In this document: piece by piece, positions 2,760 to 63,236 of the stretch | Position numbering within the stretch: the stretch's first letter is position 1 | Layout: each line of letters opens with the position of its first letter | DNA from: a virus | Lineage: Duplodnaviria; Caudoviricetes | DNA: 64,000 nucleotides | Reading direction: 5' to 3' (one strand) | IMG/VR virus record: IMGVR_UViG_3300031820_000003 | Location: 1 to 64,000 of that record | Position numbers and translations under genes: made by a program | Notes under the pieces: model-generated | Databases searched by the model: none | Told to the model about the DNA's origin: nothing | The model's input: only the letters and a program-made list of their open reading frames with translations

Positions 2760-4664
2760 TCACAACACGTAATCGACTTCGCAAAAGCCTGCAGCTCCGG
2801 TGCCGCCGCCTTCGCCAGTCCCCGCACCACCGCTGCCGCCCGATGCCGGCACGACTGCATTGATGCCTATCGTGCTGCCGGTCGTAGCCAGAGGAATAGC
2901 GCCAGACCCGAAACGGGAACCGCCGCCTTGACCGCCCCAGAGAAACGATCCCGGGATAGAAGTTCCCGTGCCTCCGGTTGCTCCGGTATTTGATGCAGTA
3001 GCCCCACCACCCGGTACGCCACCCGCACCACCCGTACCACCACCGCTAGTCACCCCGGTGCCGCCGGTGCCGCCCCCGGCAGATAGAGTTGTAAGTCCCG
3101 TTGCAGCAATTGAGGTCGCGCCGCCGTTACCACCGTTGCCGCCGGTGTTCGCGCCCGCGGTCCCGCCGGCGCCTTTCGTGATCGTAACGACAACGCCGCC
3201 CGCAACACCGTTGAAGGTTCCTTCGATATGTGCGCCGGCGCCGCCACCGCCACCCGCAGCCGTACCGTTTGAACCACCGCCACCCCCACCACCACCATCG
3301 CAGCTATAGTGATAGACCGTCGAGGTGGTCGAATTTGCGTCGGTCGTGAATGTCGCGGCCTGATAATGCAGTACCGCAGCGTTGGTTACTGTACAGGTTC
3401 CCGACGTTGTAATCGTGCAGGTGCCGCTGACGCTGATTCCTGTGCCAGCCGCGATCGCTGCGCTGGTCACCGTTCCAGTGCCAGTCGCTGTTACCCATGA
3501 TGGATTGGCGGCCGCACCGCCGCTCTGCAGCAATTGTCCGCTGCTGCCGGGAGCCAGCGCGACCCAGGACGAGGCATTGCGATAGAGGATATCGCCCTGC
3601 GTCGAGGCAATGGCGCTGTCGATGATGGCACTCAGGCCATCTGCCGCCGGCACCGCCGAGCTGCCGCTGATATTGGCCAGGATCGTGTTGTTGGCGATGG
3701 ATGGCAGCTGCGCGAGTGTGGCCTGTCCGGTCAGGGACGAGAAGGCCGGCGTGCAGGTATTCACCGAGGCTGCCGTAATGAGGCCCTTGCCGTTGACCGT
3801 CACGGTCAGGCATTGCGTGGCCGAGCCGAAGGTGCCGACGTTGCTGTTGACGGTCGCGAGCGTCGTAGCAAAGGTGACGGTGCCCGATCCGGTCACGTCG
3901 CCGGTCAGCGTGGTTGACCCGATCGTGCCGCCATCAGCGATGACCTTGCCGGTCGTGCCGCTGAAGACAGCGACGTGGTTATTGACCGCGCTGATCGGCC
4001 CCACGACGTTCCCGAGGCCAAGACCGGGCGAGGCCAGCGATGGATTGCCGTTCGCATCGAAGATGAAGAACTGACTGGCCCGTGTGGCTGCCGGCGATAG
4101 GACGCTGAGCGTTTCGCCCGGCGGGGCCTGTACGGTACGACCGGCCAAATCGTTTGTCTTGTCCCAAGTCTCGCGGTTCTCCGCGGTGAGCTCGGTCAGC
4201 GCCTGATTGAGATCACGGGCAGCAACGCCGCGGTTCTCGGTGAATTGCACAGTTCGGCGCGGGCGTTCGGCCCCGACGATCTGTACCGTTCCGGTCTGGG
4301 CCGAATTGAAGGTCAGGACCGCATTGGTGATCGGCCGCGGAATGGTGGCAAGCGCGCCTGTTACGCTCGAGAGCGACCAGCCAAAAGTTGGGTCGGTCGA
4401 TAGATAGCGGGTGCCCGCGATCCATACTTCGATCCACTCATCAACGTCAGTGCCCGAGGCGAAGATGGCAAAATTGACCGCGCAGGCGCAGGTCGTCGAC
4501 GAGATCGTATAGCTAGTCCGTCTTTCGGTGTCGGGCAGGGCGGGGACGGGAGGCGGGACTTGAGCTATCGCCGCTCCAATCCCAAAAGAAAAGGGGGCTA
4601 CGGCCAGAGCTAGGAAGCTGACCGCAGCCAGTCTTGGGAGGAACCTTCGACGAGATGTCGTCAT
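2760..4664 (-). CDS. Tail fibre (T7 gp17-like N-terminal adapter, Gly-rich C-terminus) with a Tat-like leader
   Basis: Leader MTTSRRRFL..AIA-Q; adapter-like RPRRT..FTENRG..LNQAL; Gly-rich tip; follows the ejection genes. Confidence 0.8.
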   Translation of the reverse strand: MTTSRRRFLPRLAAVSFLALAVAPFSFGIGAAIAQVPPPVPALPDTERRTSYTISSTTCACAVNFAIFASGTDVDEWIEVWIAGTRYLSTDPTFGWSLSSVTGALATIPRPITNAVLTFNSAQTGTVQIVGAERPRRTVQFTENRGVAARDLNQALTELTAENRETWDKTNDLAGRTVQAPPGETLSVLSPAATRASQFFIFDANGNPSLASPGLGLGNVVGPISAVNNHVAVFSGTTGKVIADGGTIGSTTLTGDVTGSGTVTFATTLATVNSNVGTFGSATQCLTVTVNGKGLITAASVNTCTPAFSSLTGQATLAQLPSIANNTILANISGSSAVPAADGLSAIIDSAIASTQGDILYRNASSWVALAPGSSGQLLQSGGAAANPSWVTATGTGTVTSAAIAAGTGISVSGTCTITTSGTCTVTNAAVLHYQAATFTTDANSTTSTVYHYSCDGGGGGGGGSNGTAAGGGGGAGAHIEGTFNGVAGGVVVTITKGAGGTAGANTGGNGGNGGATSIAATGLTTLSAGGGTGGTGVTSGGGTGGAGGVPGGGATASNTGATGGTGTSIPGSFLWGGQGGGSRFGSGAIPLATTGSTIGINAVVPASGGSGGAGTGEGGGTGAAGFCEVDYVL

Positions 4665-4748
4665 GACGCGCGCAGGATGGCGGTCGGCGCCGCCTCGGCA
4701 ACGCACGTTCATGATCGTTACGGGCCAGAATCGCCAGATAGCGCCGTC

Positions 4749-7700
4749 TCAATGAATGGCAGCTCCAGGCCACTGACTGGGGTCGCGGTTGAGCGGCTTC
4801 ACGCCCATGCTCTCATTGAAACCGTCCTCGGCCGCATCAAGCAGCCGCCGCACCGCAAACAGATTCTGCAGGAAGATTGCCTGCCGCATCTTGTGGGTAT
4901 CCATGGCTGTCCACGTCCCATGGAACGCATCGTTCACTCCACCGGCGATACCCTCCATCTTGGAATAGGTCGGGCCCAGCAGCTCCGACAGGGCGCTGTT
5001 GGACTGCCGGCGGGATAGCGGATGGTCGGCCCCGATCGCCCGGAACATGTCGGTCGACCCACCGGTGAACTTGGCCTGCATGGAATTGAGTTCGGTGAAC
5101 CAGCCCAGGATGGCCGACCGGGAAATGCCTTCCTTGATCCAGTCCTGGGGCCGCTCGCTGGTCGGCGCACCACTCCATAGGGTGTAGGCGCGGTAGGAGA
5201 TCATGCCCATCCCTAGGCTCGCCACGAGCCCCTGGAGGGTGCGGCCATCCATCTGCTGGAGGTTCGAGATCAGAATCTTCTCATGCGCGGCCGCCACGAA
5301 GCTCTTGTACTGCCCGAGCAGGCTGACCACCGGGCCGGACATCCAAAGGGGCTTCTCCATGCCCGGGGTTAGGACCGCCTGGTCAGCGGACCGCGCCACG
5401 GCCGAGGAGAACACGTCCCGGGCCTGGGTATCCTTCCAGTCCGCGGTGTTGGCCACATGGGTCCCGGTCCCGAACTCCTGGCCGCCACCGTCCTTGTAGG
5501 CTTTCCAGATGCGGGTCGCCATGGTGGCGTCGATCCCCGCCAGGGCCATCCGCTCGGTATCCTTGGCCGTCTGAGTGCTGCCGGCGAAGCGCTCCGCGGT
5601 GCGCAGGAACTCGGCTCCCGCCACCGTACCAGCAACGGTCTTCATGCCGTCGGTCCAGGGCCCATGCAGGTTGACCATCATGGACTTGTCGGCAGCCCAG
5701 GCCAGTGCGCGCTCGAACTTGGACCCCGGCATATGGTTGTCGATGACGTCGCCCCACTGATGCGACAGATGACCAATAGCCGAGTCGATCCCGACCCCCA
5801 TGTCCTTCATGGACTGCCGGGCCGCCGTGCCGAACCCGTCACCCAGCCCAATCATCGATTTCAGGAATGGGGCATAACCGTCCCGGAAGACGTTCATCAG
5901 GCCGTGCCGCCAGACCGCATTGGTGGCGTCGGTCATGCGGTTGAAGACCGAGGTACCCAGATCGGTGATGAGATTGTAGCTGCGGGCCGCGTTGGCAATC
6001 CGGGCTGCATTGGGCTGGGTCTTGGCGAGCTCCCAGCCATAGACGCCGCGGACCCGGTCGCGCGTGGCGGCAAGGTCGCGGACCATGGCCTTGCGCTCCC
6101 GGTCGAGCGCCTGCGCCTGCTTCTCAGTCTTAGCGCCAGCCAGCCGAGCGTCGTACTCCTCGTTGAGCTGCTTGAAGACCTGCTGCATCTCGACATCACC
6201 GAATCGGTCGGTCAGGTGAATGTCAGGCAGCGCGGTCCGCAAATGGGCGGCAATGACGTGCTCGGTGTCCGTGTTGACGAAGTCCCGCACCAGCGAGGTC
6301 GGGATAGCGAAGTCGCGGGCATTGAGCGAGCCGCGGACCTGCTGCTGCTCACCGGGCGGCCCAATGACCGGCCCGCCGCTGGCGATGTCGTAGGGCAGCC
6401 GGCCGTCAGGCGCTGTGTTGATGCGGTTGATGATCTCGGCGGCGCGGCCCTCCAGCTCCTGCCGCGACAGGTCGCGATCGGACTTGAGGATTGCCTTGAC
6501 AGCCCGGTCGACCGAACTGTCGGCGCTTTCCAGTCGGCCAGGCTCGCCCTTGAATTCCCCCGCCGCGATCTTCTCAGCCCGCAGCTGCTCTGCCTTCTCG
6601 CGCGCCTTGAGTGCGGCCTTGGCCTCCTGCGCCGATGTGCCATTCCAGTCCGCAATTTCCTTCTCGATCTTGGCCCGCATGGCCTGAGCGTGATCGGTCT
6701 CCTGGATCAACTGCTGCTCGAGCGTTTCAATCTCGCCTTCCTTGCCAGACGCCTGATCAGCGAGCTGATTGCCGCGGCCGCGAATCTTGGTCTCGAAGAC
6801 TGCCCCGCCGCGGGCATTTTCGATCCGCTTCTTTTCCGCGGTACGCAACGTTTCAGCCCGCTGATAGGCGAACTTGTTGAGGCGCGTAATCTCTTCGGCC
6901 TTGTCCTGCAGGGCTTCCAGCGCATCGGTACGGCCGGATAGCTTGGCCTCGATCTTCGCGATATTCAATTCATGCGACTTGAGCGCTCCGCTATAGACCT
7001 GTAGCCGCTCCTTTGCCGCCGCCTTCAGGCTCTGCTCGCTCTCCAGCCAATCGGTGAAAATGCGCTTGACGTCATTGAACCGCGCCGCGATAGCCGGCTT
7101 GTTCCATAGCCGCGGGAAGAATGACTTGTCCCCCTTGGGCGGCTCGAGCGCCTCGGCCAGCATGGGCTTGCCGTCCGGTCCCATGGTGCGCTGGGCCAGC
7201 CGCATGACCGGGTCGAGCACCTGGGACCGAATTTGCTTTGCAGCCGCAGCCACCTCCGGGACGGCATGCACATCGCCGTCGGTCATGGCCGACGACACCG
7301 CCGTCTTGAAGTCATCGAATGACAGCTTGCCGGGCGCCTGCCCGCGCATGTCCTGGATGGTCGCAGCGGCTGTCGGCAGCTTGCTGTCCTGCAAGCCACG
7401 GTACTTGATGAACTGATCGCGCAGGATTTGGCTGTTCGTCAGCTGCCCCTCATGAGCCTGCATCTTGACCAGCCGGTCGACCGGGATGCCACCGCGCGCC
7501 GTGGTGATGCCCTGGTCGGCCTGGGTGAAGCGCAGCGAAGTCTCGGCCAGATCGCCCATGGCGCGCTTGGCGATCAGCGATGCCGACGAGAACACCCGCA
7601 GCGTCGGCGAGAAGCCCATCAATATCTTGCTGGTGTAGTCGAGCGCACCGCCCACGCCGGGCACCTGCCGCAACGCGTGCATGGCATTCTCGGGCAGTAG

Positions 7701-9071
7701 GATGCGCGACAGCTGCATCGTGCGCCGGTCGGATTCGGCGGCGCTCAAATTGCTAGTCAAATTCCGCAGTTCAGATTGCTTCACCTCGCTTGATACAGGA
7801 ACTCCGTTCTTGTGCGTGATCTCGATATCGCTGTCGTCAAAGACGACGTAATGCTTTCCTTTATTCCAATCATAGCGGTTCGCTTTTATTCCAGCTTCTT
7901 TCAGGGCTGAAGTTGCCGCATCTTCACTTCCAGTTTTTTTGACAAGACTCTCATAGAGAGTTTGTCCAGTACTTCCAACTTCAACCCCATTTTGTTCTGC
8001 CAACTCCTTAACCTTGCTTGATTGGTCAGAAATTTTTGCACTCAAGTCCAATATCTTGTCGGGCTCTATTTTTATATTTGTTCGATAAACCGTTGCCTTC
8101 GGACCGCCGCCGGCATCAATGCTAAACCAGCGCGCCTCATCAGCGTCTGTCGTAAAATGAAACCCACGTCCAAATCCAGCCTCTCCAGTCCCTGTGCCAA
8201 TTTTTGTAGGATCAAATTTGTCGAAGCTATAGGGCGACCCATGATATAGTAGAGTCTTTGTGAGGGTCTGCGGCTCGGGCGCCTCGTGCGGGACCAGCTC
8301 GGTCTTGTCGACAAAGGGAAGCTCGCCCTGGTCGGCCCGGGCCAACTCCTGCTCGAATATCTTCTTCTCGGCCGCGTTCGTGATGACAGAAAAGCGCTGC
8401 GGGGCCGGCGTCAAATCCTTACGGATGCTCTCCAGCCCATCCTTGGCTGCGGTTCGCTCGGCCGGCGACAGAAGCCCCAAGCCCCCGCCAACCAGCCCCA
8501 TCAAGAGCGTATTCGTGGCGATGTTCTCAGCACTTTCGGCCGGCGTGCGCGTGACCTGACTGACCTGCAGCGCCGCCTCGGAGACGCTCGACTTGAGCGC
8601 GCCCTCAATCATGCCATGGGCCGCGCGACCGGCTATAGACAGCCCTGCGGCACCCGCGCGCACCTCACCGGCGATCGGGATGAACCAGGACGGATCGGTC
8701 AGGCCAGCCGCCACCGACGACACCGTGCCGAACCAGCCGGATGCGGCCAGCGTCTGCCGATCCTTGACCTCGGCGTTCTTCTTGGCAATCCGGGCATCTG
8801 TCTGCGCCGGGTTGACGTCGGCTAGCGACTGCTCGATCAGGTCGTCGTCCTTGGTGCCGGACAGCCGGTCGACCGGGTTGTAGCCCGGCACCGGCGCCAT
8901 GTCGGGCCGCGAGCGGGATAGAGCATCCAGCACGGATACGACCGGGTTGTTCTGCCGGAAGGCGGCCCCGATCGTCTCCTGGGTGGTCGGCTCATGGAAG
9001 GGCGGCGGCTCGGGCAGGCCGAGCGGTACACGGCCATCCAATGGGTCCTGGCCTTCGGAGAAGAACGGCAT
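4749..9071 (-). CDS. Large internal virion (DNA ejection) protein, T7 gp16 positional analogue
   Basis: 1440 aa, helical and Ala-rich; C-terminal GQYKSF..LQQMDG and W..EG..RS..LG motifs typical of podoviral ejection proteins. Confidence 0.8.
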   Translation of the reverse strand: MPFFSEGQDPLDGRVPLGLPEPPPFHEPTTQETIGAAFRQNNPVVSVLDALSRSRPDMAPVPGYNPVDRLSGTKDDDLIEQSLADVNPAQTDARIAKKNAEVKDRQTLAASGWFGTVSSVAAGLTDPSWFIPIAGEVRAGAAGLSIAGRAAHGMIEGALKSSVSEAALQVSQVTRTPAESAENIATNTLLMGLVGGGLGLLSPAERTAAKDGLESIRKDLTPAPQRFSVITNAAEKKIFEQELARADQGELPFVDKTELVPHEAPEPQTLTKTLLYHGSPYSFDKFDPTKIGTGTGEAGFGRGFHFTTDADEARWFSIDAGGGPKATVYRTNIKIEPDKILDLSAKISDQSSKVKELAEQNGVEVGSTGQTLYESLVKKTGSEDAATSALKEAGIKANRYDWNKGKHYVVFDDSDIEITHKNGVPVSSEVKQSELRNLTSNLSAAESDRRTMQLSRILLPENAMHALRQVPGVGGALDYTSKILMGFSPTLRVFSSASLIAKRAMGDLAETSLRFTQADQGITTARGGIPVDRLVKMQAHEGQLTNSQILRDQFIKYRGLQDSKLPTAAATIQDMRGQAPGKLSFDDFKTAVSSAMTDGDVHAVPEVAAAAKQIRSQVLDPVMRLAQRTMGPDGKPMLAEALEPPKGDKSFFPRLWNKPAIAARFNDVKRIFTDWLESEQSLKAAAKERLQVYSGALKSHELNIAKIEAKLSGRTDALEALQDKAEEITRLNKFAYQRAETLRTAEKKRIENARGGAVFETKIRGRGNQLADQASGKEGEIETLEQQLIQETDHAQAMRAKIEKEIADWNGTSAQEAKAALKAREKAEQLRAEKIAAGEFKGEPGRLESADSSVDRAVKAILKSDRDLSRQELEGRAAEIINRINTAPDGRLPYDIASGGPVIGPPGEQQQVRGSLNARDFAIPTSLVRDFVNTDTEHVIAAHLRTALPDIHLTDRFGDVEMQQVFKQLNEEYDARLAGAKTEKQAQALDRERKAMVRDLAATRDRVRGVYGWELAKTQPNAARIANAARSYNLITDLGTSVFNRMTDATNAVWRHGLMNVFRDGYAPFLKSMIGLGDGFGTAARQSMKDMGVGIDSAIGHLSHQWGDVIDNHMPGSKFERALAWAADKSMMVNLHGPWTDGMKTVAGTVAGAEFLRTAERFAGSTQTAKDTERMALAGIDATMATRIWKAYKDGGGQEFGTGTHVANTADWKDTQARDVFSSAVARSADQAVLTPGMEKPLWMSGPVVSLLGQYKSFVAAAHEKILISNLQQMDGRTLQGLVASLGMGMISYRAYTLWSGAPTSERPQDWIKEGISRSAILGWFTELNSMQAKFTGGSTDMFRAIGADHPLSRRQSNSALSELLGPTYSKMEGIAGGVNDAFHGTWTAMDTHKMRQAIFLQNLFAVRRLLDAAEDGFNESMGVKPLNRDPSQWPGAAIH
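7745..8262 (-). other. In-frame low-GC ADP-ribosyltransferase-like domain (ART-PolyVal type); boundaries approximate
   Basis: YHGS..FDKFD...G.GF.FT..A and EAGI....YVVFD motifs; G+C 23/60 at 8041-8100 vs 40/60 at 7201-7260. Confidence 0.65.
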
Positions 9072-11599
9072 CAGAATGGCGCCTGTACGTCGATAGCCCG
9101 GCTGAAGCCTTCAAGGGACTGCCGGCGGTCGCTGAGCTCGGCGGCGCGGGCGGCGAGCAGCGGCGCGGGATCGAAGCGAAACCGGCCAACCGCGCCGCCG
9201 CCAGGCGCCGTCATCACGCTCCACCGACCATTTCCGTCCTGCACCATGACCTGATAGCTCGGCGGGCGCCCGTTGCTGATATCGCGCTCGGTCTGGTCGT
9301 CAGCGACCAAGGCGCGGGGCGCGCGGTACTCGCGGTTGCCCGGCGTCTCGAGCGCGGCCCGCCGGGCCCGCGCGGCCGCCTGCTCGGGTGACTGCCGGGC
9401 TGGGGCGGGTTCAGCGCCGGGTGACGCCACCGTAGCCCCGGTCGCCTCCTTCACGGCATCGTCCAGCTGCTTCGCCATCCAGTCCTGCGACCCGCCGATC
9501 GCCGGATAATACCGCTCGGGCGCGTAGGGCATGAGGCGGTTGCCATTGACCGCCGAGACCGCGTACTTCAGCTGCAACTTCTCCATCGCAAAGACATCGG
9601 CCGCCGTCGGGTTGCCGGTCGCGGTAAAGCCCTCGCGGTAGTTCTGGTCATAGTCAGCCTTTAGCGCCCCCGAGGCGACCGCCACTTGGTCGGACACAGG
9701 GGCGCGAGCGGTGGTGCCGAACGGCCCAAAACCGGTCGAGAACTTCGACACGATCTTGTCAGCAGTGACAGACTTTAATTGCTCATCAGCCAGCTTTATG
9801 GCCGACTGGTGCGCGGCGGACTGGTCCGGATCGTAGGAGCGCATCATGCGCTTGGCGGCCTCGTCCGGCGGGTAGAACGCCAAGTTGCTCTGCCAGGCCC
9901 GCAGGTTCTTGAGCCCGTCCTTGAACTGCTGGTCGAACTGGAGCGGATTGGCCTTCTGCTGCTGGTCCAGGAACGAATAGGCCGCGGTCATCTTGGCGGT
10001 ATCGCCCGAACGGGCCATGCCTTCGATGCTGTCGCGCACGCCCTTCTCGGCCAGTAGCGCCTGCATATCCTCGCCCTTGACCGCCTGGCCGACGGCGGTA
10101 AGCACGGCGGGACCGTTCTGGCCGGCGAGCGCGGAGCGCAGCGTGCCGACCTCGTCCTTGCCCAGTACCCGCACCGGGCCGCCCTGGAATACATCCTCAC
10201 CGAGCTTGGCGATCTTGGCCCGCGCTGCCACACCGGCGGCAAACTGCTGCGGATTGCCTGCATCAAGCGCCGGCGGCATCTCGATCTTGTCAGGAAACCG
10301 CCGCTGCACCAGCCCCCAGCCCTCATCCTTCAGGGCCGTCTCGGTCTGCGCCTTTGCAGCCTTGAGCTCTTTGGCGATGGCAGCCTCGTTGCCGGTCGCC
10401 GTGCCGCCCTCTACCCTGGCCTCGAGCCCATCGATATAGCGCTGCTGCTCGGGCAGCGGCAGCTTGTTGAATGGCCCGATGACCGCCCGCATGGTGCCAT
10501 ACTGCGACACAGCAGCCGCAAGGAGCGGGTCCTTAGCGTCCATGGCCCGCTTGTGCAGGTCGGCAATGGTGGCCGGGGTCGCGTCGCCCGTCTCCTTGAC
10601 CAGCCGGAAGTCGTCAGCGACGTCCTTGACGGTCTGCCGACGCTCGGCCTCATTCATGTGGATTTCGGAGCGGACCGTCTCGAACGCCGCACGCCGCTGC
10701 ACATCGTTGAGCTTGAGCGACGGATCGGTCAGGATCGACTTGCCGAAGTCGACCGCAGCATTGGGCCCGTCCTGCTCGTAAATCTGGTTGGCATGATACC
10801 GAATGCCCTGGACCTGCAACTCGCTATGGAACTTGTCCATCTCGTAGTTGATCATGTCCTTGGACACGCCGAGCCGCGGATTGTTGGCCATCTCGCCGTA
10901 CAGGGCCTTCATCTGACCGCTGTACTTGTTCCACTCCGGACCGTCGGTCACGCCCTGATTGGCCAGGGCGGTCAGGCTATCCTTGGCGCTCTCGATGCCA
11001 GCCCGGATGCTCGACTCCGCGCGCTGCAAATCGAGGCGCTCCTTCTCGTTCAGGAGCCCGCGGTAGGTGAGTGTCGTCTGCGAGTCGATCAGCTTGCCGA
11101 GCGTGATCCCGACCTCGGGGCCGGCCGCATCGGTATACTCCTTGACCTTTGCATTCTTGAAGGTTCCCGCTGCCGCAAGGTAGCCCTGCGGATTGTCGCG
11201 ATACTTCTCCCGCAGCGCGATATCCTCACGCTTGGCCGCACCCTCGCCCTCCGACACTGCCGCGAACTTGATCGCGCGCGCATAGGTCTTGCCGGCCTCG
11301 CCGAAGATCGGAACCTTGTCGACCTTGATGTTGCCGTTGGCGTCGGTTGTGACGGCCTGTAGCCCAGCGCGCTCAGCCAGCGGCTCGGCCACAGCCTCCA
11401 GCGCCCCGCTGGCCTTGTCAGCCGCACGGGCAATGTTCTCGCCCCGCTGATCGAGCATGTGCCCGAGCATCTGATATGGGCTGGCGATTTCGCTCGGGCT
11501 GACATTCGAGCGCGGCGCCGTGCTGGTAACGACCGGTCCGATGGACGGCTCAACACCGCCGACCTGCGTTTCGCGGACAAAGGGGAGAACGTCAGCCAT
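9071..11599 (-). CDS. Internal virion (ejection) protein, gp15 positional analogue
   Basis: About 840 aa, helical, translationally coupled to both neighbours. Confidence 0.7.
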   Translation of the reverse strand: MADVLPFVRETQVGGVEPSIGPVVTSTAPRSNVSPSEIASPYQMLGHMLDQRGENIARAADKASGALEAVAEPLAERAGLQAVTTDANGNIKVDKVPIFGEAGKTYARAIKFAAVSEGEGAAKREDIALREKYRDNPQGYLAAAGTFKNAKVKEYTDAAGPEVGITLGKLIDSQTTLTYRGLLNEKERLDLQRAESSIRAGIESAKDSLTALANQGVTDGPEWNKYSGQMKALYGEMANNPRLGVSKDMINYEMDKFHSELQVQGIRYHANQIYEQDGPNAAVDFGKSILTDPSLKLNDVQRRAAFETVRSEIHMNEAERRQTVKDVADDFRLVKETGDATPATIADLHKRAMDAKDPLLAAAVSQYGTMRAVIGPFNKLPLPEQQRYIDGLEARVEGGTATGNEAAIAKELKAAKAQTETALKDEGWGLVQRRFPDKIEMPPALDAGNPQQFAAGVAARAKIAKLGEDVFQGGPVRVLGKDEVGTLRSALAGQNGPAVLTAVGQAVKGEDMQALLAEKGVRDSIEGMARSGDTAKMTAAYSFLDQQQKANPLQFDQQFKDGLKNLRAWQSNLAFYPPDEAAKRMMRSYDPDQSAAHQSAIKLADEQLKSVTADKIVSKFSTGFGPFGTTARAPVSDQVAVASGALKADYDQNYREGFTATGNPTAADVFAMEKLQLKYAVSAVNGNRLMPYAPERYYPAIGGSQDWMAKQLDDAVKEATGATVASPGAEPAPARQSPEQAAARARRAALETPGNREYRAPRALVADDQTERDISNGRPPSYQVMVQDGNGRWSVMTAPGGGAVGRFRFDPAPLLAARAAELSDRRQSLEGFSRAIDVQAPF

Positions 11600-12207
11600 C
11601 ACACACCCGTAAAGCTGCCGGATGGCAAAGACGTGTTCCAAGCGGCCGCATCCGTCACCGATACCGTGCTGCTGCCGCCGCCACCGGACCCCAGAGCGCC
11701 GCCAATGCCTTTGAGCACATCAGACCCTGCCGAGATGTAGCCGCTCATTATCGCCGAGCTAGCGCCCACGTCGCCCGTGAGCAATGCCTGATTGGCGGCA
11801 TAGCGCAGATATGCCGCATCAGCCTCATCCTGTCGGGCCTGCTCCTGTATGCTGGATACCTCGATGTCCTTCTGTTCGGTGCCTGTCTGCTCGGTGTAAT
11901 CGCGGATAGCGGCTCCCGTCGGGGACGATGGATCAGCATGAGCTGCCGAGCGGATCGCATCGATATTGCCGAGCGTGATATTGAGATTGCGCGTAAGTTG
12001 GCCAGCAGTCTGCGAAGCCTTCAGCTCGCCATACTGCGCGGCGCGGTCGAGCTCGGCTGCCTTGAACTCATCTCCCGCCGCAACACCAGTCGCATTGAGC
12101 CGATCAGCATTAGCCTGGCCTTGGCCCTTGCTGATATCGCCAAATGCACCAAGCCCGACAGATGCGAGCGATATGGCGGCAGCCGTTGTGCTAACTGGAT
12201 CGCCCAT
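11599..12207 (-). CDS. Small internal virion protein, gp14-like
   Basis: Gly/Ala-rich N-terminus and Q/A-rich helix; follows the nozzle gene. Confidence 0.75.
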   Translation of the reverse strand: MGDPVSTTAAAISLASVGLGAFGDISKGQGQANADRLNATGVAAGDEFKAAELDRAAQYGELKASQTAGQLTRNLNITLGNIDAIRSAAHADPSSPTGAAIRDYTEQTGTEQKDIEVSSIQEQARQDEADAAYLRYAANQALLTGDVGASSAIMSGYISAGSDVLKGIGGALGSGGGGSSTVSVTDAAAWNTSLPSGSFTGV

Positions 12208-14477: not shown

Positions 14478-14489
14478 AGCTGCTCAGCC

Positions 14490-15266
14490 TCAGGCCACCC
14501 AAGAAGAAAGAGCGACAAATAATGCGATCATTCCTGGGATATTCGATCCGCCCCAATTGTTGATGCCGAGCGGCGGCCACGGCCGGCGAACACGGCGCGC
14601 TGCCGTAATGCGCGAATTGAAGAACTGCCGCTTGGGCTTTTGCTGGTCGTAACGGGTCCGCGCGCGCTGCAGCATCGCCTCACCAGCCTGCCACATCTTG
14701 TCGCCCTCTGCCGGGTCCTCATGCAGACCGCGGTAGATGGCCGCCATGATGAAGTTCTGCAGCGCAACGATCAGCGTTGGCGTGCCAGAGGTGGAATCCG
14801 AGAGCGGTCCGGAATTCGAGATGTACTTGAGCGTGATCTGTGCAGGCGTGACAGGAGGGCTCGGGGGCGGCGGACCGCCCTGTGCATTGACGACGATCAC
14901 CGGACCATTTGGGGTGCCGGCAATATCGTATAGGACCGGCGCAGGCGTGACGCTGGTGAAATCGGTCGACGTGTTGTCCTGATTGATCTTGAGCCAGATG
15001 ATGTGGACGCAGTCCGCGGGGATCGGATAGGCAGTGTCCCAGGCCGTATCCTGCGGCGCGGTCGGGCTCGGCTGAAGCGTCACGACCTGGCTGGCAAAGC
15101 CCCAGCCGTGACTTTCCATCATGTAGCCCATCGCCCGCTCATAGGCGGGAGAGCTGACATTCCACTCATCAGAGCCGTCATCGGCCACATTGACGAGATT
15201 GTCGCCGCAGAACATCAGGGCGGCGTTGATAGCGCCAAGTTTATCGATCGGAAAGGTGTAGCTCAT
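14490..15266 (-). CDS. Tail tubular protein A (adaptor, T7 gp11-like)
   Basis: INAAL..CG, H.WGFA, AYP.PADC motifs; precedes the nozzle gene. Confidence 0.85.
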   Translation of the reverse strand: MSYTFPIDKLGAINAALMFCGDNLVNVADDGSDEWNVSSPAYERAMGYMMESHGWGFASQVVTLQPSPTAPQDTAWDTAYPIPADCVHIIWLKINQDNTSTDFTSVTPAPVLYDIAGTPNGPVIVVNAQGGPPPPSPPVTPAQITLKYISNSGPLSDSTSGTPTLIVALQNFIMAAIYRGLHEDPAEGDKMWQAGEAMLQRARTRYDQQKPKRQFFNSRITAARRVRRPWPPLGINNWGGSNIPGMIALFVALSSWVA

Positions 15267-15323
15267 GCCGCACGGTGCTGCGGGACCCCAGAACGGGCAA
15301 CGCACGTTAGGGGCGGCACTCTT

Positions 15324-49212: not shown

Positions 49213-49332
49213 GTCGCTCTCCCTTGGCGCATCGCGCGCCCTACCCTGCTTGGCTATTAGCTAGCGAACTAACGTAAAGCAAAAAATGAGTCCTGACTGA
49301 TTTTGTCAAAACCCGTTGCATAAATGCCACTA

Positions 49333-49707: not shown

Positions 49708-49806
49708 GTCAGGCTCCACAATAAGAGGAAGAGAGGCCGCCAATACAGATTAGCGGCGATGATTACGCATACGGAAAGCAACAAGAAACCTATCGCTGCC
49801 GCAGTA

Positions 49807-53477: not shown

Positions 53478-54539
53478 TCATAATTTCACATACCAACTTC
53501 CCGTCAGCGCGGCGCTCAGGACATTGTGCGAGCTGCCCGAGCCGAGAGCGCTGATTGTGCCGGCGGGCGTAATGGTCACCGTTGGCGTGAAGTTGCCAGT
53601 GTTGAAGGCTGCGAAACCGCCGCCACCGAGAGTGCCTGCGGTGCTCGACGTAACTTGCTGATTGCCGCTCCACGTCTGCTGCGTGCCGGTAAAGGTGGGC
53701 GACACCGCCGGCAACTGCGCCTGTGTTAGCGTATGATTATCCTCGCCCGCGGTCGCGCCCGGCGTTGTCGGCGTATCGCCGCCTGACGTGATGTTCTGCG
53801 CGAGCAGAAGGCCGAGCGGGGCATTGCCCATGTCATCAACACCGACACCGCATATGCGCGCGCGGCAGTCATAGACCGTAATCGTCTTGTTGGCATTGAA
53901 GTCGGCCAAGCCGGATGCGCCCTTGCCGCCCGCGACCGTACAGAGGTGGCAGTTGGTCCACAGATAGACGAACAGAGCTTGCGTATCGGCATTGGCTCGG
54001 CCCGTTGCGCCTGACGTAGCGCTGCCGATCGTCAGCCCATTGGCCTTGACCCATCCGGTGATAGTCTCGCCGGTCGGCCGGAACTTCAGGTCTCCTGTCG
54101 CGAAGATCGTGGTCGGATCGATGCCGCCGCCGCCCCCCGACCCACCTGACGGCCCGATGACGAGCGCGGACGGATAGTCGAACTGCACCACACCTCCCGC
54201 ATCTGTTAGGCGGATGTGGACGGACCCATTGGCGAGGTAAAATGCGGGGACACGGCCATTTGCATCAAGCGGCAAGGGCCATGGATTCTGGATCGTCAGC
54301 GCTGTATCCTGGAACGAGTTCTGACGGGTGGCGACCGTGCCAACCTGATAGAAATACAGCAGGCCGCCAATGAGTGGCGTTCCGCAGGCATTGGCAGCGG
54401 TCGAGCATCCCACGAATGAGAATTGCTGGGTCAGGGAGACCGGCAGCGTGCCTTGCGCCGATGCCGGTGCGTAGCCGAATAGCAATAGGAGGGCAGCAAT
54501 GGTAACTCTTGCTCGTATTGCAGTTAGTTTCATCGTCAT
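53478..54539 (-). CDS. Tail fibre (P22 head-binding-like adapter plus collar) with a Sec-like leader
   Basis: Leader ..TIAALLLLFGYAPASA-Q; G.PL.GG.LYFY..GT, NP.P..LDANGR; collar TGDLK..GWVKANG; AGGA RBS. Confidence 0.8.
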   Translation of the reverse strand: MTMKLTAIRARVTIAALLLLFGYAPASAQGTLPVSLTQQFSFVGCSTAANACGTPLIGGLLYFYQVGTVATRQNSFQDTALTIQNPWPLPLDANGRVPAFYLANGSVHIRLTDAGGVVQFDYPSALVIGPSGGSGGGGGIDPTTIFATGDLKFRPTGETITGWVKANGLTIGSATSGATGRANADTQALFVYLWTNCHLCTVAGGKGASGLADFNANKTITVYDCRARICGVGVDDMGNAPLGLLLAQNITSGGDTPTTPGATAGEDNHTLTQAQLPAVSPTFTGTQQTWSGNQQVTSSTAGTLGGGGFAAFNTGNFTPTVTITPAGTISALGSGSSHNVLSAALTGSWYVKL

Positions 54540-54690: not shown

Positions 54691-54845
54691 TCTTCTTCAT
54701 CGTCTGCTTGGTTTCCGTTTATTCCATCACTGAAGGGATGATCGTGTTCCCTTGGTCGGGCTGGCTATTGCTGGCCCTGATCTTCTGCCGGCGCCGTAAG
54801 TCGACGCTGGACAGCCTGCGTGATGTGCTCGGCCCGGATGCCTAG
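54687..54845 (+). CDS. Antisense small membrane protein
   Basis: MIFFIVCLVSV..WLLLALIFCRRRK; ATGA-coupled. Confidence 0.4.
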   Translation: MIFFIVCLVSVYSITEGMIVFPWSGWLLLALIFCRRRKSTLDSLRDVLGPDA

Positions 54846-56690
54846 ATTGTTGGCGAGATTGCGGGTCGCCAAATTGAAGGCGGTCGTCCGTGCTGGCGTT
54901 GGCGAGGCAAGAAGCGTCTGATAGGCGCGCGACCATTTCGAAGCCGACGCAGCGCTGGCCGGACTCGCAAGCCATCTCGTGAACATCCAGAGTGCAGCCG
55001 TCGATCCTGCACCGATAGCCGTTCCGCCGCCAAGCCCACCTGTAGCCACGTCAGTCGCGAGCAATGCTGCGTCCTTCGCCACATCCATCAGCACCAGGAA
55101 CGAGGCGGAATGCGATGTGCTGCTTTCCCGCAGCGCGCCTTTGATGTGCTGACCCATCTGCGCGATAGCCTCGATCGAGGCCCGGTGCGCAGGACTTGGT
55201 GTAAATGGTGTCAGGTCGCCATGCTCCTCGCGCAGCCGGTTTACGGCTGTCACGAACTTGGCAAGGCTGAATTGGCCGGTCGCCGGATTGAATCCGAGCG
55301 CCCGCAATGTCGGGTCGTCAGCGTGCTTGTTGAGAATGCCCTGTAGCTTCTTGTTCGCCTGTGAGAGCGGACCAAATCGGCTTTCGGCCGCATCGAAGGC
55401 CCGCTGCGCACGAGCCCCGCCCTGCCGCCCGATATTGTCCCGTATGTCCGCCGTCATGGCACGGGTAATTTGGTTATAGTCCGCAGCGTTGTAGCCGGGA
55501 TGAGGGGTCGCCACATTACCGGCCTCGCGCGCGTCCACCCGCGCCCGGTGTGCACCGTTGAAGCTGGCGCCCTGCCCGATATTCTCGAATTGCTCGAGCC
55601 CCTGATCAGGATTGGGATGCCCGGCAGCCGTGCGTGCGGCCTTGACCCTTTGCACCGCGGCAGCCGTGCGCGGCATCGGCATGACCCGATCGGGAGCAAT
55701 CTGGCCACGCACATTGCCATAAAGGCCGTCTATGGCCTGCCGATTGGCGTCTATAGCGTCCTGAATGCGCGATTGACCGGCAACGGTGCCGGCCGCCTCC
55801 TCGGTCTGCGCAACTCGCTCGCCAATCTTCTCGCCGGCAAACGGCACCTGCCGCAGCTTGGCGGTCGTCGCCTGCACCGCAGAGCTATCCGAAACCACTC
55901 CGCGCGGCAGCGGTGCCCCGATGATATCGGCCGTGCGTGCGGCCTGCTGACCAGGTGTTGTTCCGGTGGTCAGGCGAGGTCCTACGGCAGCCCCGAGAGC
56001 ACCACCCAGCCCGAGGCCAATAAGCCCGGTTGTCGCCCCACGGGTCGCTATATCGCTTGGGGATGCCCCCTCGCTAGTGGCCTCGCCAGTGCCATAGAGA
56101 GCGCCGCCTATGGCGCCTGTGCGCGCCCCCTGTATCGCCCTGGCCCCAATGCCACCCGCACGCATGGCGCCTGCGCCGGGGACTGGCATCGCCAGGGTGC
56201 CCGCCAACTGTCCGGCGAGGTAAATCTGCGGATGCTGCTCCTTGGCGAGGTCCTGGTTCTCAAGCGCCGCCTGCCGCCCGCGGTTATAGGCGTCCTGCAC
56301 ATCCGGATCGGGATGACCGGAGAGATAGCCACTGAGGAGCTTGGCCGCCCCAAGAACAGGCCGCAATGCCGCAGCGCCGCTCGCCCGCTCCTCTGGCGTC
56401 TTAGGCTCGGGCAGCCCAGACGCGGACGCAACGCCTTCCAGAGCCGGCGAGAAGCCGAATGTGAGCCCTTCCGCAGCAGCGGTGCCAAGAGCCTCCCCAC
56501 CGCTTACCTGCCGCTTTGGCGGCGGTGGCGTGTCGTGGTCGTCCGCAAAGGGATCGCCCGCTGGCCCCGCAGGAGCGACGCCAGTCCCGCTCGCGCCCCG
56601 CGCCGGTGCGTCGAGGTCATCGGCAAACGGGTCGACCGGAGGCGGCTCGACGCCTCGCGGATGTACAACACCGACATATGTGGGCGTCAT
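54765..56690 (-). CDS. DNA ejection protein (P22 gp16 positional analogue)
   Basis: DPFADD repeats, EGLTFG, Gly/Ala-rich. Confidence 0.75.
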   Translation of the reverse strand: MTPTYVGVVHPRGVEPPPVDPFADDLDAPARGASGTGVAPAGPAGDPFADDHDTPPPPKRQVSGGEALGTAAAEGLTFGFSPALEGVASASGLPEPKTPEERASGAAALRPVLGAAKLLSGYLSGHPDPDVQDAYNRGRQAALENQDLAKEQHPQIYLAGQLAGTLAMPVPGAGAMRAGGIGARAIQGARTGAIGGALYGTGEATSEGASPSDIATRGATTGLIGLGLGGALGAAVGPRLTTGTTPGQQAARTADIIGAPLPRGVVSDSSAVQATTAKLRQVPFAGEKIGERVAQTEEAAGTVAGQSRIQDAIDANRQAIDGLYGNVRGQIAPDRVMPMPRTAAAVQRVKAARTAAGHPNPDQGLEQFENIGQGASFNGAHRARVDAREAGNVATPHPGYNAADYNQITRAMTADIRDNIGRQGGARAQRAFDAAESRFGPLSQANKKLQGILNKHADDPTLRALGFNPATGQFSLAKFVTAVNRLREEHGDLTPFTPSPAHRASIEAIAQMGQHIKGALRESSTSHSASFLVLMDVAKDAALLATDVATGGLGGGTAIGAGSTAALWMFTRWLASPASAASASKWSRAYQTLLASPTPARTTAFNLATRNLANNLGIRAEHITQAVQRRLTAPAEDQGQQ

Positions 56691-58210
56691 TTGGCGTACT
56701 TGATATCCCCGTTCGGGGTCCGGTACGGGTCACCCGACTTGAGCCCTTGCGCCTGTTTCCATGCCTGCGCCTGCGCCGGGGTCTTGATCGTCGGCGGGGC
56801 CTCTGGAGCGCCCAGCAGGGTCGGATTGGCGGCCTCTTGGTCCGTGAATGCCGGATGGGCCTTGACATAATCCGCCACCTGCTTGGCGAAGCCGTCATCC
56901 AACACGCCGCCATGCTTGGCCCGATAGTCGATCGCCATGTCACGAATCTGCGTCGAGCGCTGGCCGATCCGGTCCATGATGTTGATCAGCATACGGTTAC
57001 CCCAAACCGTATTCTGCAGGTTGGGGTTCGATTTCACTACCTGCTCGATCTGCTGCGAGAAGATACGCGCGCTGGCGCCACCCGCCTCCATGAGCTGATC
57101 GCGCTGCTGGTTGACCGCGCTCAATGTGGTAATGGCGTTGATCTTCTCGAGGCCCTGTTGCAGGGTTGCCGCGGCCGGCGAACCGAACAGATCGCGGACC
57201 TTGTTCATGGCAAGCGAGGCATCTGCGCCAATGCCGGTATAGGTGCGCGGGTCGCTCAGAATGCCGTGCGCTAGCGTCAGCACGGGCTTCATATCGCGCT
57301 CGTATTGCGTCGCGGAAGCCTGAATGCCTTCCCATGTTTTGCCGGACTGGTCGATGGTCTGCTTTTGGGTTGCCGTGGCCGCGGTCGTCCCAGATGCGAG
57401 GTTCTTCTGCTCGGGGGTCAATTCGACATTCTTGCCGAGAATATCGCGGATTTGCTTGGCAGTTGCATCGTGGGCTTCCGCTGCCTTTTCATAGGTCTGC
57501 GCTTGAGCAGTATCCCCGAGTGCTCCATAGCGCGCCCCCTGCTGGCGAAGATAGGTGGCCGCCTTTTCATGATTGCGAGCGGTGCCTTCGCTATAGAAGC
57601 CATTGGGCACGCTGCTGCCGCCGGGTTGCGGCGTCGCCTGGGCGGTTTGCTGTGGCTGAGTATTGGGCGAACTCGCGCCCATGAACGGCGCAGGGCTTGG
57701 CCCCGCATTATCCGAACCCATAATCTGCTCGCCGCCTGGCAAAATGCTTCCAGGCGGCTTGCCGGTAATGCTGCCCGGTCCCGCATTTGTCTGCGGCATG
57801 TGGGCATCGGCGGATGGCTGCGTAGGCGGCGGCGCGTTCCCCGGCGCAGGATTACCTGTGCCTACAGAAGGGGCACCGAAGCCGCCTGAAATCTTGTCTG
57901 CGTTCTGAAAATCCGTCGCGGATTGATTAGCGAGCTGCATCCTTAGAAGCTGCGGCAACATCTGCTGCGCAGCTTCCGTTCCGCCAAGACGCGAGATTGT
58001 ATCAGCTACCTTATTGTAATCGACGTTGCCATTCTCATCCTTTGGAAGGCCATTTTGAAATGCTGTCTGCTGCGCGCGCTTCTGCGCATACTGTTGGCCC
58101 TCTTGGAACTGCTCAGGAAGTTTGCCGATCCAACTAAAATCAACAAGAGGCGCTGCATAGTTCGGAGGCCGAGGTGCGCCCGGAAGCTCCACATTGTCAT
58201 AGGCGGCCAT
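56687..58210 (-). CDS. DNA ejection protein (gp20 positional analogue)
   Basis: Q/P-rich N-terminus, SNP.L..T..GN, C-terminal LKSGDPYRTPNG. Confidence 0.7.
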   Translation of the reverse strand: MAAYDNVELPGAPRPPNYAAPLVDFSWIGKLPEQFQEGQQYAQKRAQQTAFQNGLPKDENGNVDYNKVADTISRLGGTEAAQQMLPQLLRMQLANQSATDFQNADKISGGFGAPSVGTGNPAPGNAPPPTQPSADAHMPQTNAGPGSITGKPPGSILPGGEQIMGSDNAGPSPAPFMGASSPNTQPQQTAQATPQPGGSSVPNGFYSEGTARNHEKAATYLRQQGARYGALGDTAQAQTYEKAAEAHDATAKQIRDILGKNVELTPEQKNLASGTTAATATQKQTIDQSGKTWEGIQASATQYERDMKPVLTLAHGILSDPRTYTGIGADASLAMNKVRDLFGSPAAATLQQGLEKINAITTLSAVNQQRDQLMEAGGASARIFSQQIEQVVKSNPNLQNTVWGNRMLINIMDRIGQRSTQIRDMAIDYRAKHGGVLDDGFAKQVADYVKAHPAFTDQEAANPTLLGAPEAPPTIKTPAQAQAWKQAQGLKSGDPYRTPNGDIKYAK

Positions 58211-58920
58211 CAGGCAAATGCCCCGAATATACTCTTGCCAACATTACCAAGGCCACCAAGCGCCTGGCCTCCGACCGTATTCGATCCAAGGCTAGCTACT
58301 CCGCCAAGCGCATTCCAGAAGTTCGCGGAGGCATTGAGCGGCGCGAGATCGGCCGATGCCTGCGCATTGCCCTGGCCTACCTGCGTGCCATAGGCCGCAT
58401 TGCCCTGGGTAGTGAATGAGTTATTAAGCTGGCCACCAAGGTTCTGGTTGCCTTGCAACACCTGTCCAGCCGTCGCGGTCTGCTGTGGCAGATATTGCGA
58501 AAGATTGTTGACGTAGTTTTGCCAGCCCGTATTGGCGAGACCCTGGCCATACTTCAACAGGTCGAGATTGGTGCCACCCGAATTAAGCTGGCCAGTCGCG
58601 GCCTGATTGCGGAGAATATTCTGGTTGCCTTGGTCTAATTGAAACTGATAACCGGGATTGTTCTGGAACCCGGCAACCGCCTGCGCATTGCCCTGTGGGC
58701 CATTGAGGCCGAGCGCATTGCCGTATTGCGTGGCGCCCTGCGTGTTCTGATTGAAGGCCGTCGTAGGCGCATTGATGCCTGTCTGTCCATAGCTGGTCAG
58801 CGCGCCGCGGCCTTGGCCAAACAGGTCCGATAGCTGGTTGTAGCCAAGCTGCAAACCCTGCTTCTGATCATTGGCAGCGTTTTGCTGATCTTGCGAACTG
58901 AAGATATCGAACAAACCCAT
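58210..58920 (-). CDS. DNA ejection protein, P22 gp7-like
   Basis: FQNNPGYQFQLDQG..AA.G.L.SGGT..YGQGLA. Confidence 0.85.
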   Translation of the reverse strand: MGLFDIFSSQDQQNAANDQKQGLQLGYNQLSDLFGQGRGALTSYGQTGINAPTTAFNQNTQGATQYGNALGLNGPQGNAQAVAGFQNNPGYQFQLDQGNQNILRNQAATGQLNSGGTNLDLLKYGQGLANTGWQNYVNNLSQYLPQQTATAGQVLQGNQNLGGQLNNSFTTQGNAAYGTQVGQGNAQASADLAPLNASANFWNALGGVASLGSNTVGGQALGGLGNVGKSIFGAFA

Positions 58921-59177
58921 CAGAGCGTCCTCACAAATATGGTCGCCGGATCGGCCGTGCTGCGATATAGGCCATTCAACGGAACACCGGCCGCAGCAGC
59001 ATTCGCATTCGTCGGCACCGCAACTCCCGTCAGCGGGCCAAGCGAGTTCTGGTTCAAAAGCTGGACGAGCTTATTCACCGTATCCAACCATTGTCCGAAT
59101 GCGAGTGTCGGACGGCCATCGGGGAGAACAACCTGAAAGTTGGTCGGCGGCAGCGGGAATAGGACTTGCGTGGTCAT
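58920..59177 (-). CDS. Small tail-associated protein
   Basis: 85 aa, coupled both sides. Confidence 0.55.
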   Translation of the reverse strand: MTTQVLFPLPPTNFQVVLPDGRPTLAFGQWLDTVNKLVQLLNQNSLGPLTGVAVPTNANAAAAGVPLNGLYRSTADPATIFVRTL

Positions 59178-62573: not shown

Positions 62574-62630
62574 TAGTTGGGTCGTGTCGTCGGTTTCGGG
62601 AGGAAACCCTCCGGGGAAACAACGCCGGAG

Positions 62631-63236
62631 CTAGCAGGCCGGGGAAGTAAAGCCCGGCGCATTCGATGCAGGCAGGCAGCCGCCGTCGTTCGGACCGAGA
62701 AACTCGATATCGAACACGATGGTACCTGTGGTGGGCGCGGCACCCGTGAACGTCACGGTCAGCCACAAGTCGAAGCCGCCGTCCGCGCCCGTCGTCGCAA
62801 TGCCGTTGCCAGTGGCCTGTGCGCCCTGCCCCGCCGTGACGATGGTGAGAGCAGGAGCGCCGGTTGCCGCCGTCTTGATATCCTGCGCAGATACAAGCTG
62901 AGCGCCGGCCGAAGCCGTGCCGAGCGACATGGTGCACGTGGTCGCCGCATTGCAAACGGCTGACTGGAACCAATTGCCGCGCAGGATGAACGCATTGTAG
63001 GGCAGCGCGCCGACTTTCACGCTGCAGGTGCCCGCCGCAAACACGCACGCCGGGCCGTTGTCAGCCTGCACACTCGTTGCCGAGACGGTGAAGATATGCC
63101 GCTCGTAATAAGTCTGCTGGCTGGGATAGTAGCGAGGCCCAAAGGTGGGCGGGATCGTCAGCGCATAGGCAGCGATGACGCCAGGGACGACGAGGAGCGC
63201 AAGAGCGCGCACCGCCGATCGAAGCAGATTCTTCAT
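62631..63236 (-). CDS. Signal-peptide jelly-roll capsid cement/decoration protein
   Basis: Leader MKNLLRSAVRALALLVVPGVIAAYA-L; Cys pairs; directly after the capsid gene. Confidence 0.65.
   Translation of the reverse strand: MKNLLRSAVRALALLVVPGVIAAYALTIPPTFGPRYYPSQQTYYERHIFTVSATSVQADNGPACVFAAGTCSVKVGALPYNAFILRGNWFQSAVCNAATTCTMSLGTASAGAQLVSAQDIKTAATGAPALTIVTAGQGAQATGNGIATTGADGGFDLWLTVTFTGAAPTTGTIVFDIEFLGPNDGGCLPASNAPGFTSPAC

Follow-up and report, generated by a model that had tools for sequence, protein, structure and literature searches.

Signal-peptide-type leaders and paired cysteines on fibre, cement and neighbouring late proteins of two tandem podophages: a possible periplasmic step in virion assembly

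The first 64 kb of IMG/VR record IMGVR_UViG_3300031820_000003, an 86,867-bp virus sequence from a soil metagenome, were analysed, and this whole stretch is referred to below as the window. It contains two tandem phage units, A and B, and both have their late genes on the minus strand. Nine late proteins encoded in the window begin with a leader of the signal-peptide type and are rich in cysteines, many of them in close pairs. These are the fibres of the two units (fib1 and fib2), the capsid cement protein of unit B and six proteins encoded just ahead of the unit A tail-adaptor gene (g20715, g20084, g19557, g19309, g18505 and g17330, named after their start positions). There is good evidence that fib1, fib2 and the cement protein are homologues of virion-surface parts, and every leader-bearing part that could be identified is of a kind that binds to the outside of the finished particle.

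Tailed-phage assembly is, by the textbook account, wholly cytoplasmic. The best explanation of the present pattern, which we hold at about an even chance of being right, is that Sec preproteins give rise to the outer parts, which complete their maturation in the periplasm and are attached to the particle around lysis. The wider proposal falls slightly short of even in our estimate: that many soil podophages build heads, tails and ejection proteins in the cytoplasm, and that fibres, tailspikes and cement proteins are exported by Sec, trimmed by signal peptidase I, oxidized by the Dsb system and attached at lysis.

Leaders and predicted cleavage sites

All nine open reading frames (ORFs) encode one to four Lys or Arg residues near the start, an uncharged hydrophobic run of 9–20 residues and small residues at positions −3 and −1, in agreement with the first-pass annotation of this DNA, which had described a basic n-region, a hydrophobic h-region and a small-residue cleavage site in nine late-operon proteins. 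The predicted cuts (marked by a hyphen) are AIA-QVPPP in fib1, ASA-QGTLP in fib2 and AYA-LTIPP in the cement protein, and AHA-AATT (g20715), SWG-QTTS (g20084), VGA-QLSC (g19557), AWA-TNDT (g19309), CHA-QVPM (g18505) and AFS-YPNN (g17330) in the six-gene cassette. None of the 29 other late proteins (capsid, portal, scaffold, terminase, adaptor, nozzle and ejection proteins) has an N-terminus of this type, which upholds the earlier statement that the capsid, portal and tube proteins are leaderless. As a control, the two phage-encoded outer-membrane barrels, which are necessarily exported, bear the same kind of leader. The pattern had also been said to recur in two podoviral architectures, and the gene content agrees: unit A has a T7-like tail module and unit B is P22-like by its PHROG matches.

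The start codons appear to be correctly placed. Shine–Dalgarno-like motifs precede the starts at 63236, 20715, 20084, 19309, 18505 and 54539, and the ATG at 17330 overlaps the TGA of the upstream gene. Real starts downstream of the hydrophobic segments had been named as a finding that would overturn the proposal; no internal start lies behind the fibre leaders (codons 2 to 49 of fib1 include no further in-frame start), and a leaderless isoform of the fibres made from an internal start was rejected on this ground. One boundary required correction: the gene starting at 20084 stops at 19539 and encodes 181 residues, the stop at 19588 being an error.

Conservation within the families described below is high, and on sequence grounds the leaders are real, conserved family features rather than start-codon artefacts. 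The leader of fib1 had also been read as a twin-arginine (Tat) signal. This holds for the window protein, which has SRRRFL as a match to the Tat motif S/T-R-R-x-F-L, and the related phage G001 has LRRFLL, but it is not a family trait, with RR in 49 of 106 fib1-family leaders and many of the others being short Sec-type leaders with KK or a single Arg.

Cysteine content

Cysteine makes up 56 of the 2,733 residues (2.05%) of the nine mature leader-bearing proteins, compared with 51 of 11,307 (0.45%) in the other late proteins (Fisher p = 2.7e-14). The mature counts are all even (8, 6, 6, 4, 4, 4, 6, 10 and 8 for fib1, fib2, the cement protein, g20715, g20084, g19557, g19309, g18505 and g17330, respectively); under simple parity the chance of nine even counts is about 0.002. 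Many pairs are separated by only 2–8 residues. The seven ejection or internal proteins of the two units contain a single Cys among their roughly 3,970 residues; the remaining cytoplasmic late proteins have 0.68%. The composition claimed in the first-pass annotation, close Cys pairs in leader-bearing proteins and near Cys-free ejection proteins, is therefore found. The scarcity of Cys in the ejection proteins may reflect the constraint of passing unfolded through the oxidizing periplasm of the next host.

Capsid cement protein of unit B

The clearest link between leader and cysteines is found in the cement protein. Its model (predicted local distance difference test score, pLDDT, of 85) is an all-β jelly roll, and its best matches are the cement proteins of the podophages Pam1 (7eel_H), GP4 (8h89_J), KHP30 (7dn2_1) and KHP40 (7dou_4), with fold Z scores of 9.0, 8.9, 8.4 and 7.6, respectively, over 109–131 aligned residues. 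The next unrelated matches score at most 6.8, and the cement proteins lie about two Z units above generic jelly rolls. These relatives share the gene position adjoining the capsid gene and a core of about 135 residues. The decoration protein proposed after the capsid gene is thus recovered as a jelly-roll cement protein. The window protein differs from the solved cement proteins in its 25-residue leader, in three Cys pairs (64/71, 95/101 and 187/201) and in a Cys-bearing C-terminal extension.

Within the cement family the leader and the Cys pairs vary together. In the alignment, two or more of the three pairs occur in 28 of the 31 sequences with a leader, whereas all 16 sequences without one lack them entirely, and the cysteines are gained or lost pairwise. 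Across 64 representative clusters the median number of Cys is 4 where a leader is present, compared with 0.5 where it is absent (p = 1.9e-7), and the form with leader and Cys occurs in about two thirds of the clusters. Leaderless members (about 135 residues) start 3–10 residues ahead of a conserved Arg, and in the leader-bearing members (about 200 residues) the distance from the predicted cut to this Arg is 10 residues; the window protein has 34 residues before it. The homologue in Vibrio phage VPMS1, also encoded after the capsid gene, is leaderless and Cys-free.

PHROG 20969, to which this family corresponds, carries the label ‘Rz-like spanin’. This function does not fit the window protein, given the all-β jelly-roll model and the position of the gene after the capsid gene. 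The VPMS1 protein (MS_010; NC_021776, 6065–6508) is likewise annotated as an Rz-like spanin and follows the major capsid gene; because of this position and its homology to the modelled cement protein, the spanin label of PHROG 20969 and MS_010 is probably wrong.

Fibre of unit B

The chain of fib2 consists of a leader, directly followed by a domain of the tailspike head-binding type and then by a collar-like C-terminal part. The family profile matches the entry ‘Tailspike head-binding domain’ 7eeq_A with E = 3.7e-8 and 9vyg and 9vyh with E = 1e-7 to 4e-6; it matches PHROG 8763 ‘tail protein’ with 1e-29, and fib2 has a homologue in cyanophage Pam5 that is annotated as the tail fibre. An N-terminal-adapter fibre had been predicted at 54539, and the head-binding match bears this out. 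The gene directly follows the ejection genes, as it does in loci L003, L005, L007 and L008, and the record holds a single copy, with no leaderless second copy. A search of genome contigs with the single fib2 sequence gave no relatives; an alignment-based search did.

More than 1,600 homologues of similar length are known (1,647 counted), many of them on contigs of 40–60 kb. Among the best 120, 115 of the 116 that retain the N-terminal anchor motif have a leader. The hydrophobic core of these leaders varies freely, whereas the AxA end and the QGTLP that follows are conserved, and position −1 is Ala in 111 of 115. The likeness to the leaderless podovirus head-binding domains (7eeq, 9vyg and 9vyh; Pseudanabaena phage Pam5 gp16) lies in the profile match and the gene position; fib2 and its close relatives differ from them by the leader ending in AxA before QGTLP and by added Cys pairs.

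Close relatives of fib2 also include leaderless head-binding fibres. In Astrobacterium formosum and in a Pseudolabrys genome the homologue has the same place after the ejection genes and starts with M-AGTLP or M-AGTTP, with no in-frame extension upstream of either start, whereas copies in Bradyrhizobium read AxA-AGT(T/I)P behind a leader. The leader-bearing copies of L007, from Bradyrhizobium oligotrophicum S58, and L008, from Bradyrhizobium sp. YR681, share a Cys pair whose positions are Gly and Leu in the close leaderless relative L005, and the L005 fibre has no Cys in the whole protein. A separate observation concerns the cyanophage: genes 19 and 20 of Pam5 (L001, 8993–9798), right after its tail-spike gene, both encode signal-peptide-like leaders and cysteines.

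Fibre of unit A

The leader of fib1 is followed by a tail-docking domain of the gp17 type (approximately residues 43–176) and a variable C-terminal part. A model of residues 1–260 (pLDDT 72) matches almost exclusively the fibre N-domains of solved podovirus tails. In VIA-align comparisons, residues 43–176 superpose on LME-1 (9efk_AE; Z = 8.8) and on T7 gp17 (7ey9_a, Z = 8.4; 7boz_b, Z = 7.3), with a Foldseek E value of 5.9e-5; HRP29, P-SCSP1u and Kp9 give further matches, and over the set of T7 gp17 and related podovirus fibres (7ey9, 7boz, 9efk, 8es4, 8i4m and 7y1c) Z ranges from 8.8 to 7.2. The tail fibre with an N-terminal adapter predicted at 4664 thus has the expected docking fold. Residues 43–48 of the model align to residues 1–6 of the solved fibre chains, and the leader is therefore an addition ahead of a complete docking domain. 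Solved gp17-type fibres start only 1–6 residues before the domain and are synthesized in the cytoplasm, whereas fib1 and 106 of the 107 homologues that share its N-domain have an extra leader of 20–34 residues, a Pro-rich linker and a conserved CxC.

The family comprises more than 770 homologues (771 counted), many of them on contigs of 40–60 kb. A conserved segment, QAPPPVPALPD...TCAC, stands directly behind the leader, and position −1 is Ala or Gly in 102 of the 106 leaders. The C-terminal halves differ among homologues, with pectate-lyase, β-helix and other domains; this is the usual modularity of tailspikes, and a conserved N-domain with swappable receptor-binding or depolymerase C-domains is also seen in gp17-type fibres. 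The gene position is again that of gp17, downstream of gp14–16-like internal proteins in a module with gp11/gp12-like tail genes, and the adaptor and nozzle would be the docking site of fib1. The record has one copy of fib1 and no leaderless second copy, and unit A has no other candidate receptor-binding protein. A 42-kb relative of unit A (92% complete) has the same leader-bearing fibre, together with one leader-bearing g20715 homologue just before the adaptor gene.

Six-gene cassette ahead of the unit A adaptor

The six cassette proteins are likely, as judged from their sequences and gene positions, to include appendage-like outer parts. In g20715 the pair C36/C70 is invariant in three sequences. 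The protein g20084 is 47% identical over 95 residues to a leader-bearing 148-residue protein encoded among the unit B head genes at 65551–65997 of the record; this protein, just outside the window, is a tenth leader-bearing late protein, its leader ending in AFA before QAIGPG. In the ESM Atlas the look-alikes of g19309 are unnamed viral clusters only.

Members of the g18505 family are encoded in the fibre regions of other phages. The leader of P0253 ends in AIA before SWHSVLQ, and the leaderless relative P0255 starts with M-WHSVLQ; P0253 has 14 Cys and P0255 has one. Residues 80–156 of g17330 match the N-terminal part of the GH54 arabinofuranosidase B catalytic domain in Pfam, and because of this segment g17330 may have a glycan-binding or glycan-cutting role. 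An 82-residue segment with 65% identity is common to g17330 (496–576) and g18505 (102–183), which indicates domain duplication or exchange inside the cassette. A pattern scan of IMG/VR gave no relatives of g18505 or g17330. With Pfam at E values up to 5, the nine leader-bearing proteins gave only the partial GH54 match and a chance match to SdpI, with no T7 tail-fibre, collar, SGNH or lectin domains; the esterase assigned to this group in the first-pass annotation is not supported, no SGNH/GDSL domain being found. A GDSL lipase with a leader is encoded in the related locus L014.

Five of the genes (15324–20084) have a third-position G+C content of 0.55–0.69, compared with 0.74–0.85 in the flanking core genes, and they are missing from the related 42-kb phage, which retains only the g20715 homologue. 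Their lower third-position G+C content and their absence there suggest that they may have been acquired later. The cassette was also considered as a moron, and this was rejected: a crude consensus scan found no promoter-like sites (2.8 expected), terminator-like matches are at background level and the genes overlap or are coupled, so that no promoter or terminator signature of its own is present. A longer array of leader-bearing genes was observed in L015, a 53.7-kb Logan contig that is one of those with a g18505 relative in the fibre region, where nine consecutive ones lie between genes for an ejection-like protein and a GH25 lysin (3230–15442); most are Cys-rich, with up to 17 Cys.

A proposed two-compartment assembly and its alternatives

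We regard as the most telling comparative result that in three families (fib2, g18505 and the cement protein) leaderless relatives start at or near the predicted cut of the leader-bearing ones. Mature ends that are the same, or nearly so, with and without a leader are expected if signal peptidase removes the leader, and Cys pairs that co-vary with leaders are expected for a move to the oxidizing periplasm. On this strong comparative basis the leader-bearing proteins are probably exported and folded in the periplasm; that the exported pool would be the one that ends up on virions is, in our view, an evenly balanced question. The interpretation offered in the first-pass annotation, periplasmic finishing of virions, stands in so far as the leaders are family-conserved, occur on homologues of outer parts and track Cys pairs, although its Tat and esterase details do not.

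In the proposed route, the n–h–c leader would take each chain across the inner membrane, and signal peptidase I would cut after the AxA-type site and leave about the same N-terminus as in the leaderless relatives. The host Dsb system would then close the paired cysteines. Assembly of heads, tails and Cys-free ejection proteins would take its usual cytoplasmic course. Once holin and endolysin have breached the barrier between the compartments, the oxidized fibres and cement trimers would meet the particles and dock via their ordinary attachment domains. In vitro, T7 fibres, P22 tailspikes and decoration proteins can attach to particles that are already complete.

Several points weigh against this reading. 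The leaders were called with our own heuristic (hydrophobicity and the small-residue −3/−1 rule). The fold-match Z scores are middling (7–9), the fib1 sequence gives no match to the T7 tail-fibre model PF03906 in Pfam at E values up to 5, and hhalign of the fib1 family against T7 gp17 residues 1–200 aligned only 38 columns (probability 1.4%, E = 0.036). In a collection of 50,697 phage records, neither the fib1 nor the g20715 family has a match in an isolated, characterized phage. For five of the six cassette proteins a link to the particle is putative, and the evidence for the cassette is thinner than that for fib1, fib2 and the cement protein. Leader-bearing family members with few cysteines also exist: the record 65551–65997 protein has none and P0257 has two. 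Finally, late in infection the precursors might not leave the cytoplasm and might be assembled with their leaders uncleaved, their cysteines being oxidized only after release.

The main rival supposes two pools, the exported form acting on the envelope of the producing cell (receptor masking or destruction, superinfection exclusion or easier release) and the virions being built from unexported precursor. It accommodates the glycan-active domains seen in family members (the pectate-lyase and β-helix domains of fib1 relatives, GH54-like g17330 and the GDSL lipase of L014), and export capacity may saturate late in infection; the placement of the exported form on particles is also an inferred step. 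The cement protein, however, has no obvious job in the envelope and yet displays the clearest leader–Cys pair link. The docking domains that stand immediately behind the cut site are conserved, the leaderless relatives that start at or near the cut suggest that the mature end matters, and there is no internal start from which a leaderless isoform could be made. We consider this rival unlikely. It would be more surprising still if the leader-bearing genes, mainly the five extra cassette genes, were secreted accessory cargo for lysogenic conversion or other auxiliary functions and never virion parts, with the fibre likeness reflecting ancestry. The low third-position G+C content of the cassette, the absence of its five genes from the 42-kb relative and the lack of family assignments would fit such cargo, but unit A would then be left without any receptor-binding protein, and abundant lineages (the 771 and 1,647 homologues counted above) would be fibreless; moreover, the cassette genes are coupled, with no promoter or terminator signature of their own, and g18505 relatives are found in fibre regions of other phages.

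We give equally little credence to the view that the N-termini are something other than cleavable export signals, whether uncleaved membrane tethers, propeptides cut by another protease or artefacts of the heuristic. The h-region of fib1 is long (about 23 residues) and could be an anchor, and signal peptides on capsid proteins of Porphyromonas phages have been read as prohead-protease substrates (Matrishin et al., 2023; PMC10367356). However, variable h-regions precede a conserved AxA site and mature start, gains and losses of leaders fall at or close to the predicted cut, the Cys counts are even and the pairs co-vary with the leaders, and the leaders are of the same kind as those of the phages' own outer-membrane barrels. 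An uncleaved anchor with its N-terminus inside would, in any case, still put the protein body in the periplasm.

Comparison with known systems

In filamentous phages the coat proteins pIII and pVIII have Sec leaders that signal peptidase removes, and DsbA forms the disulfide bonds of pIII. They resemble the proteins described here as leader-bearing, signal-peptidase-processed virion parts; however, inoviruses assemble at the membrane by extrusion without lysis, whereas here a tailed particle would be built in the cytoplasm and only the outer add-ons exported. The MAT fibres of Bdellovibrio are phage-like trimeric fibres with a signal peptide that are exported by the cell, and they demonstrate that folding of such fibres is possible outside the cytoplasm; these cellular adhesins belong to a predator and are neither encoded in a phage late operon nor virion parts (Caulton et al., 2024; PMC10769870). 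Sec signal peptides on tailed-phage genes have been noted in Porphyromonas phages, on capsid proteins, spanins and genes of no assigned function, with no mention of fibres, cement proteins, a cysteine pattern or an assembly route (Matrishin et al., 2023; PMC10367356). In our full-text literature search, no tailed-phage fibre or cement protein was reported to have a Sec or Tat leader, and export of the outer parts is possibly a new assembly route for tailed phages. The observations that are new here are the leaderless relatives that start near the cut in three families, the pairwise co-variation of Cys and the leader-bearing cement protein.

If the route exists, phages would need the host Sec, LepB and Dsb systems for their assembly, and no infectious particle would arise before lysis. 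Until release, receptor-binding proteins would be separated from the particles and would be able to act on the envelope, and disulfide-stabilized fibres may explain hardiness in soil. Annotation pipelines count a signal peptide against a virion role. There would also be practical consequences: host-range engineering must decide whether leaders are to be kept or removed, and expression of such fibres or depolymerases would need the periplasm rather than the cytoplasm.

Genome context

Unit A extends over roughly 0.4–42.9 kb, with a terminal integrase at 41329–42558. Its late genes encode the large terminase, the portal, an HK97-type capsid protein, a T7-like tail module, the fibre and a lysozyme-based lysis cassette; the tail module comprises a gp11-like adaptor, a gp12-like nozzle and three internal proteins (PHROGs 394, 376 and 418, with a weak match to the SU10 adaptor). 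Unit B starts near 47.5 kb and continues beyond the window. Its P22-like assignment is based on PHROGs 334 (capsid protein), 578 and 598, a gp10-like protein and three or four ejection proteins, and its fibre gene and GH108 lysis cassette come after the ejection genes. Relatives of the fibres are located in genomes of Bradyrhizobium, Pseudolabrys, Astrobacterium and Acetobacteraceae, and for this reason the host is probably an alphaproteobacterium of the Bradyrhizobium type. The coordinates of all features are summarized in Table 1.

Table 1. Features of the two phage units, in window coordinates (aa, amino acids; nt, nucleotides)
Feature	Position	Strand	Length (aa)	Leader and cysteines	Remarks
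Unit A lysis cassette	623–2860	-		Leader on barrel	Phage lysozyme 2171–2860; outer-membrane barrel 1322–2113; small membrane proteins
fib1, unit A tail fibre	2760–4664	-	634	Leader 1–34 (nt 4563–4664); 8 Cys
Unit A internal/ejection proteins	4749–12207	-	202 + 856 + 1,440	No leaders; 1 Cys altogether
Unit A tail adaptor and nozzle	12207–15305	-		Leaderless	gp11-like adaptor 14490–15305; gp12-like nozzle 12207–14477
g17330	15324–17330	-	668	Leader; 8 Cys
g18505	17330–18505	-	391	Leader; 10 mature Cys	YTGPGDVVSGA..WYGLRAY family
g19309	18515–19309	-	264	Leader; 6 Cys
g19557	19309–19557	-	82	Leader; 4 Cys	Uninterrupted run of eight Gly
g20084	19539–20084	-	181	Leader; 4 Cys
g20715	20104–20715	-	203	Leader; 4 Cys	Position directly ahead of tail adaptor gene conserved among related phages
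Unit A major capsid protein	21987–22940	-		Leaderless; 1 Cys
Unit B lysis cassette	47585–50648	-		Leader on barrel	GH108 lysin 50055–50648; holin-like protein 49807–50058; outer-membrane barrel 48457–49212; membrane/coiled-coil proteins
fib2, unit B fibre	53478–54539	-	353	Leader 1–28 (nt 54456–54539); 6 Cys
Unit B ejection proteins	54765–59177	-	85 + 236 + 507 + 641	No leaders; 0 Cys
Unit B jelly-roll capsid cement protein	62631–63236	-	201	Leader 1–25	Directly after major capsid gene
Unit B major capsid protein	63247–64000	-		Leaderless	Continues to 64392 of record

The make-up of the two lysis cassettes looks canonical: each encodes a soluble lysin together with small membrane proteins. No obvious lipoprotein o-spanin was seen in either, and each contains the gene for an outer-membrane β-barrel (Pfam OMP_b-brl) with a signal peptide. 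Among sequencing runs, the record sequence occurs only in the soil metagenome from which it probably came, and no RNA run is listed for it. The 86.9-kb record, with a CheckV completeness of 100%, is a tandem of two different temperate podophages, each with a genome of about 43 kb, and a 440-residue ORF lies close to its end (84961–86283).

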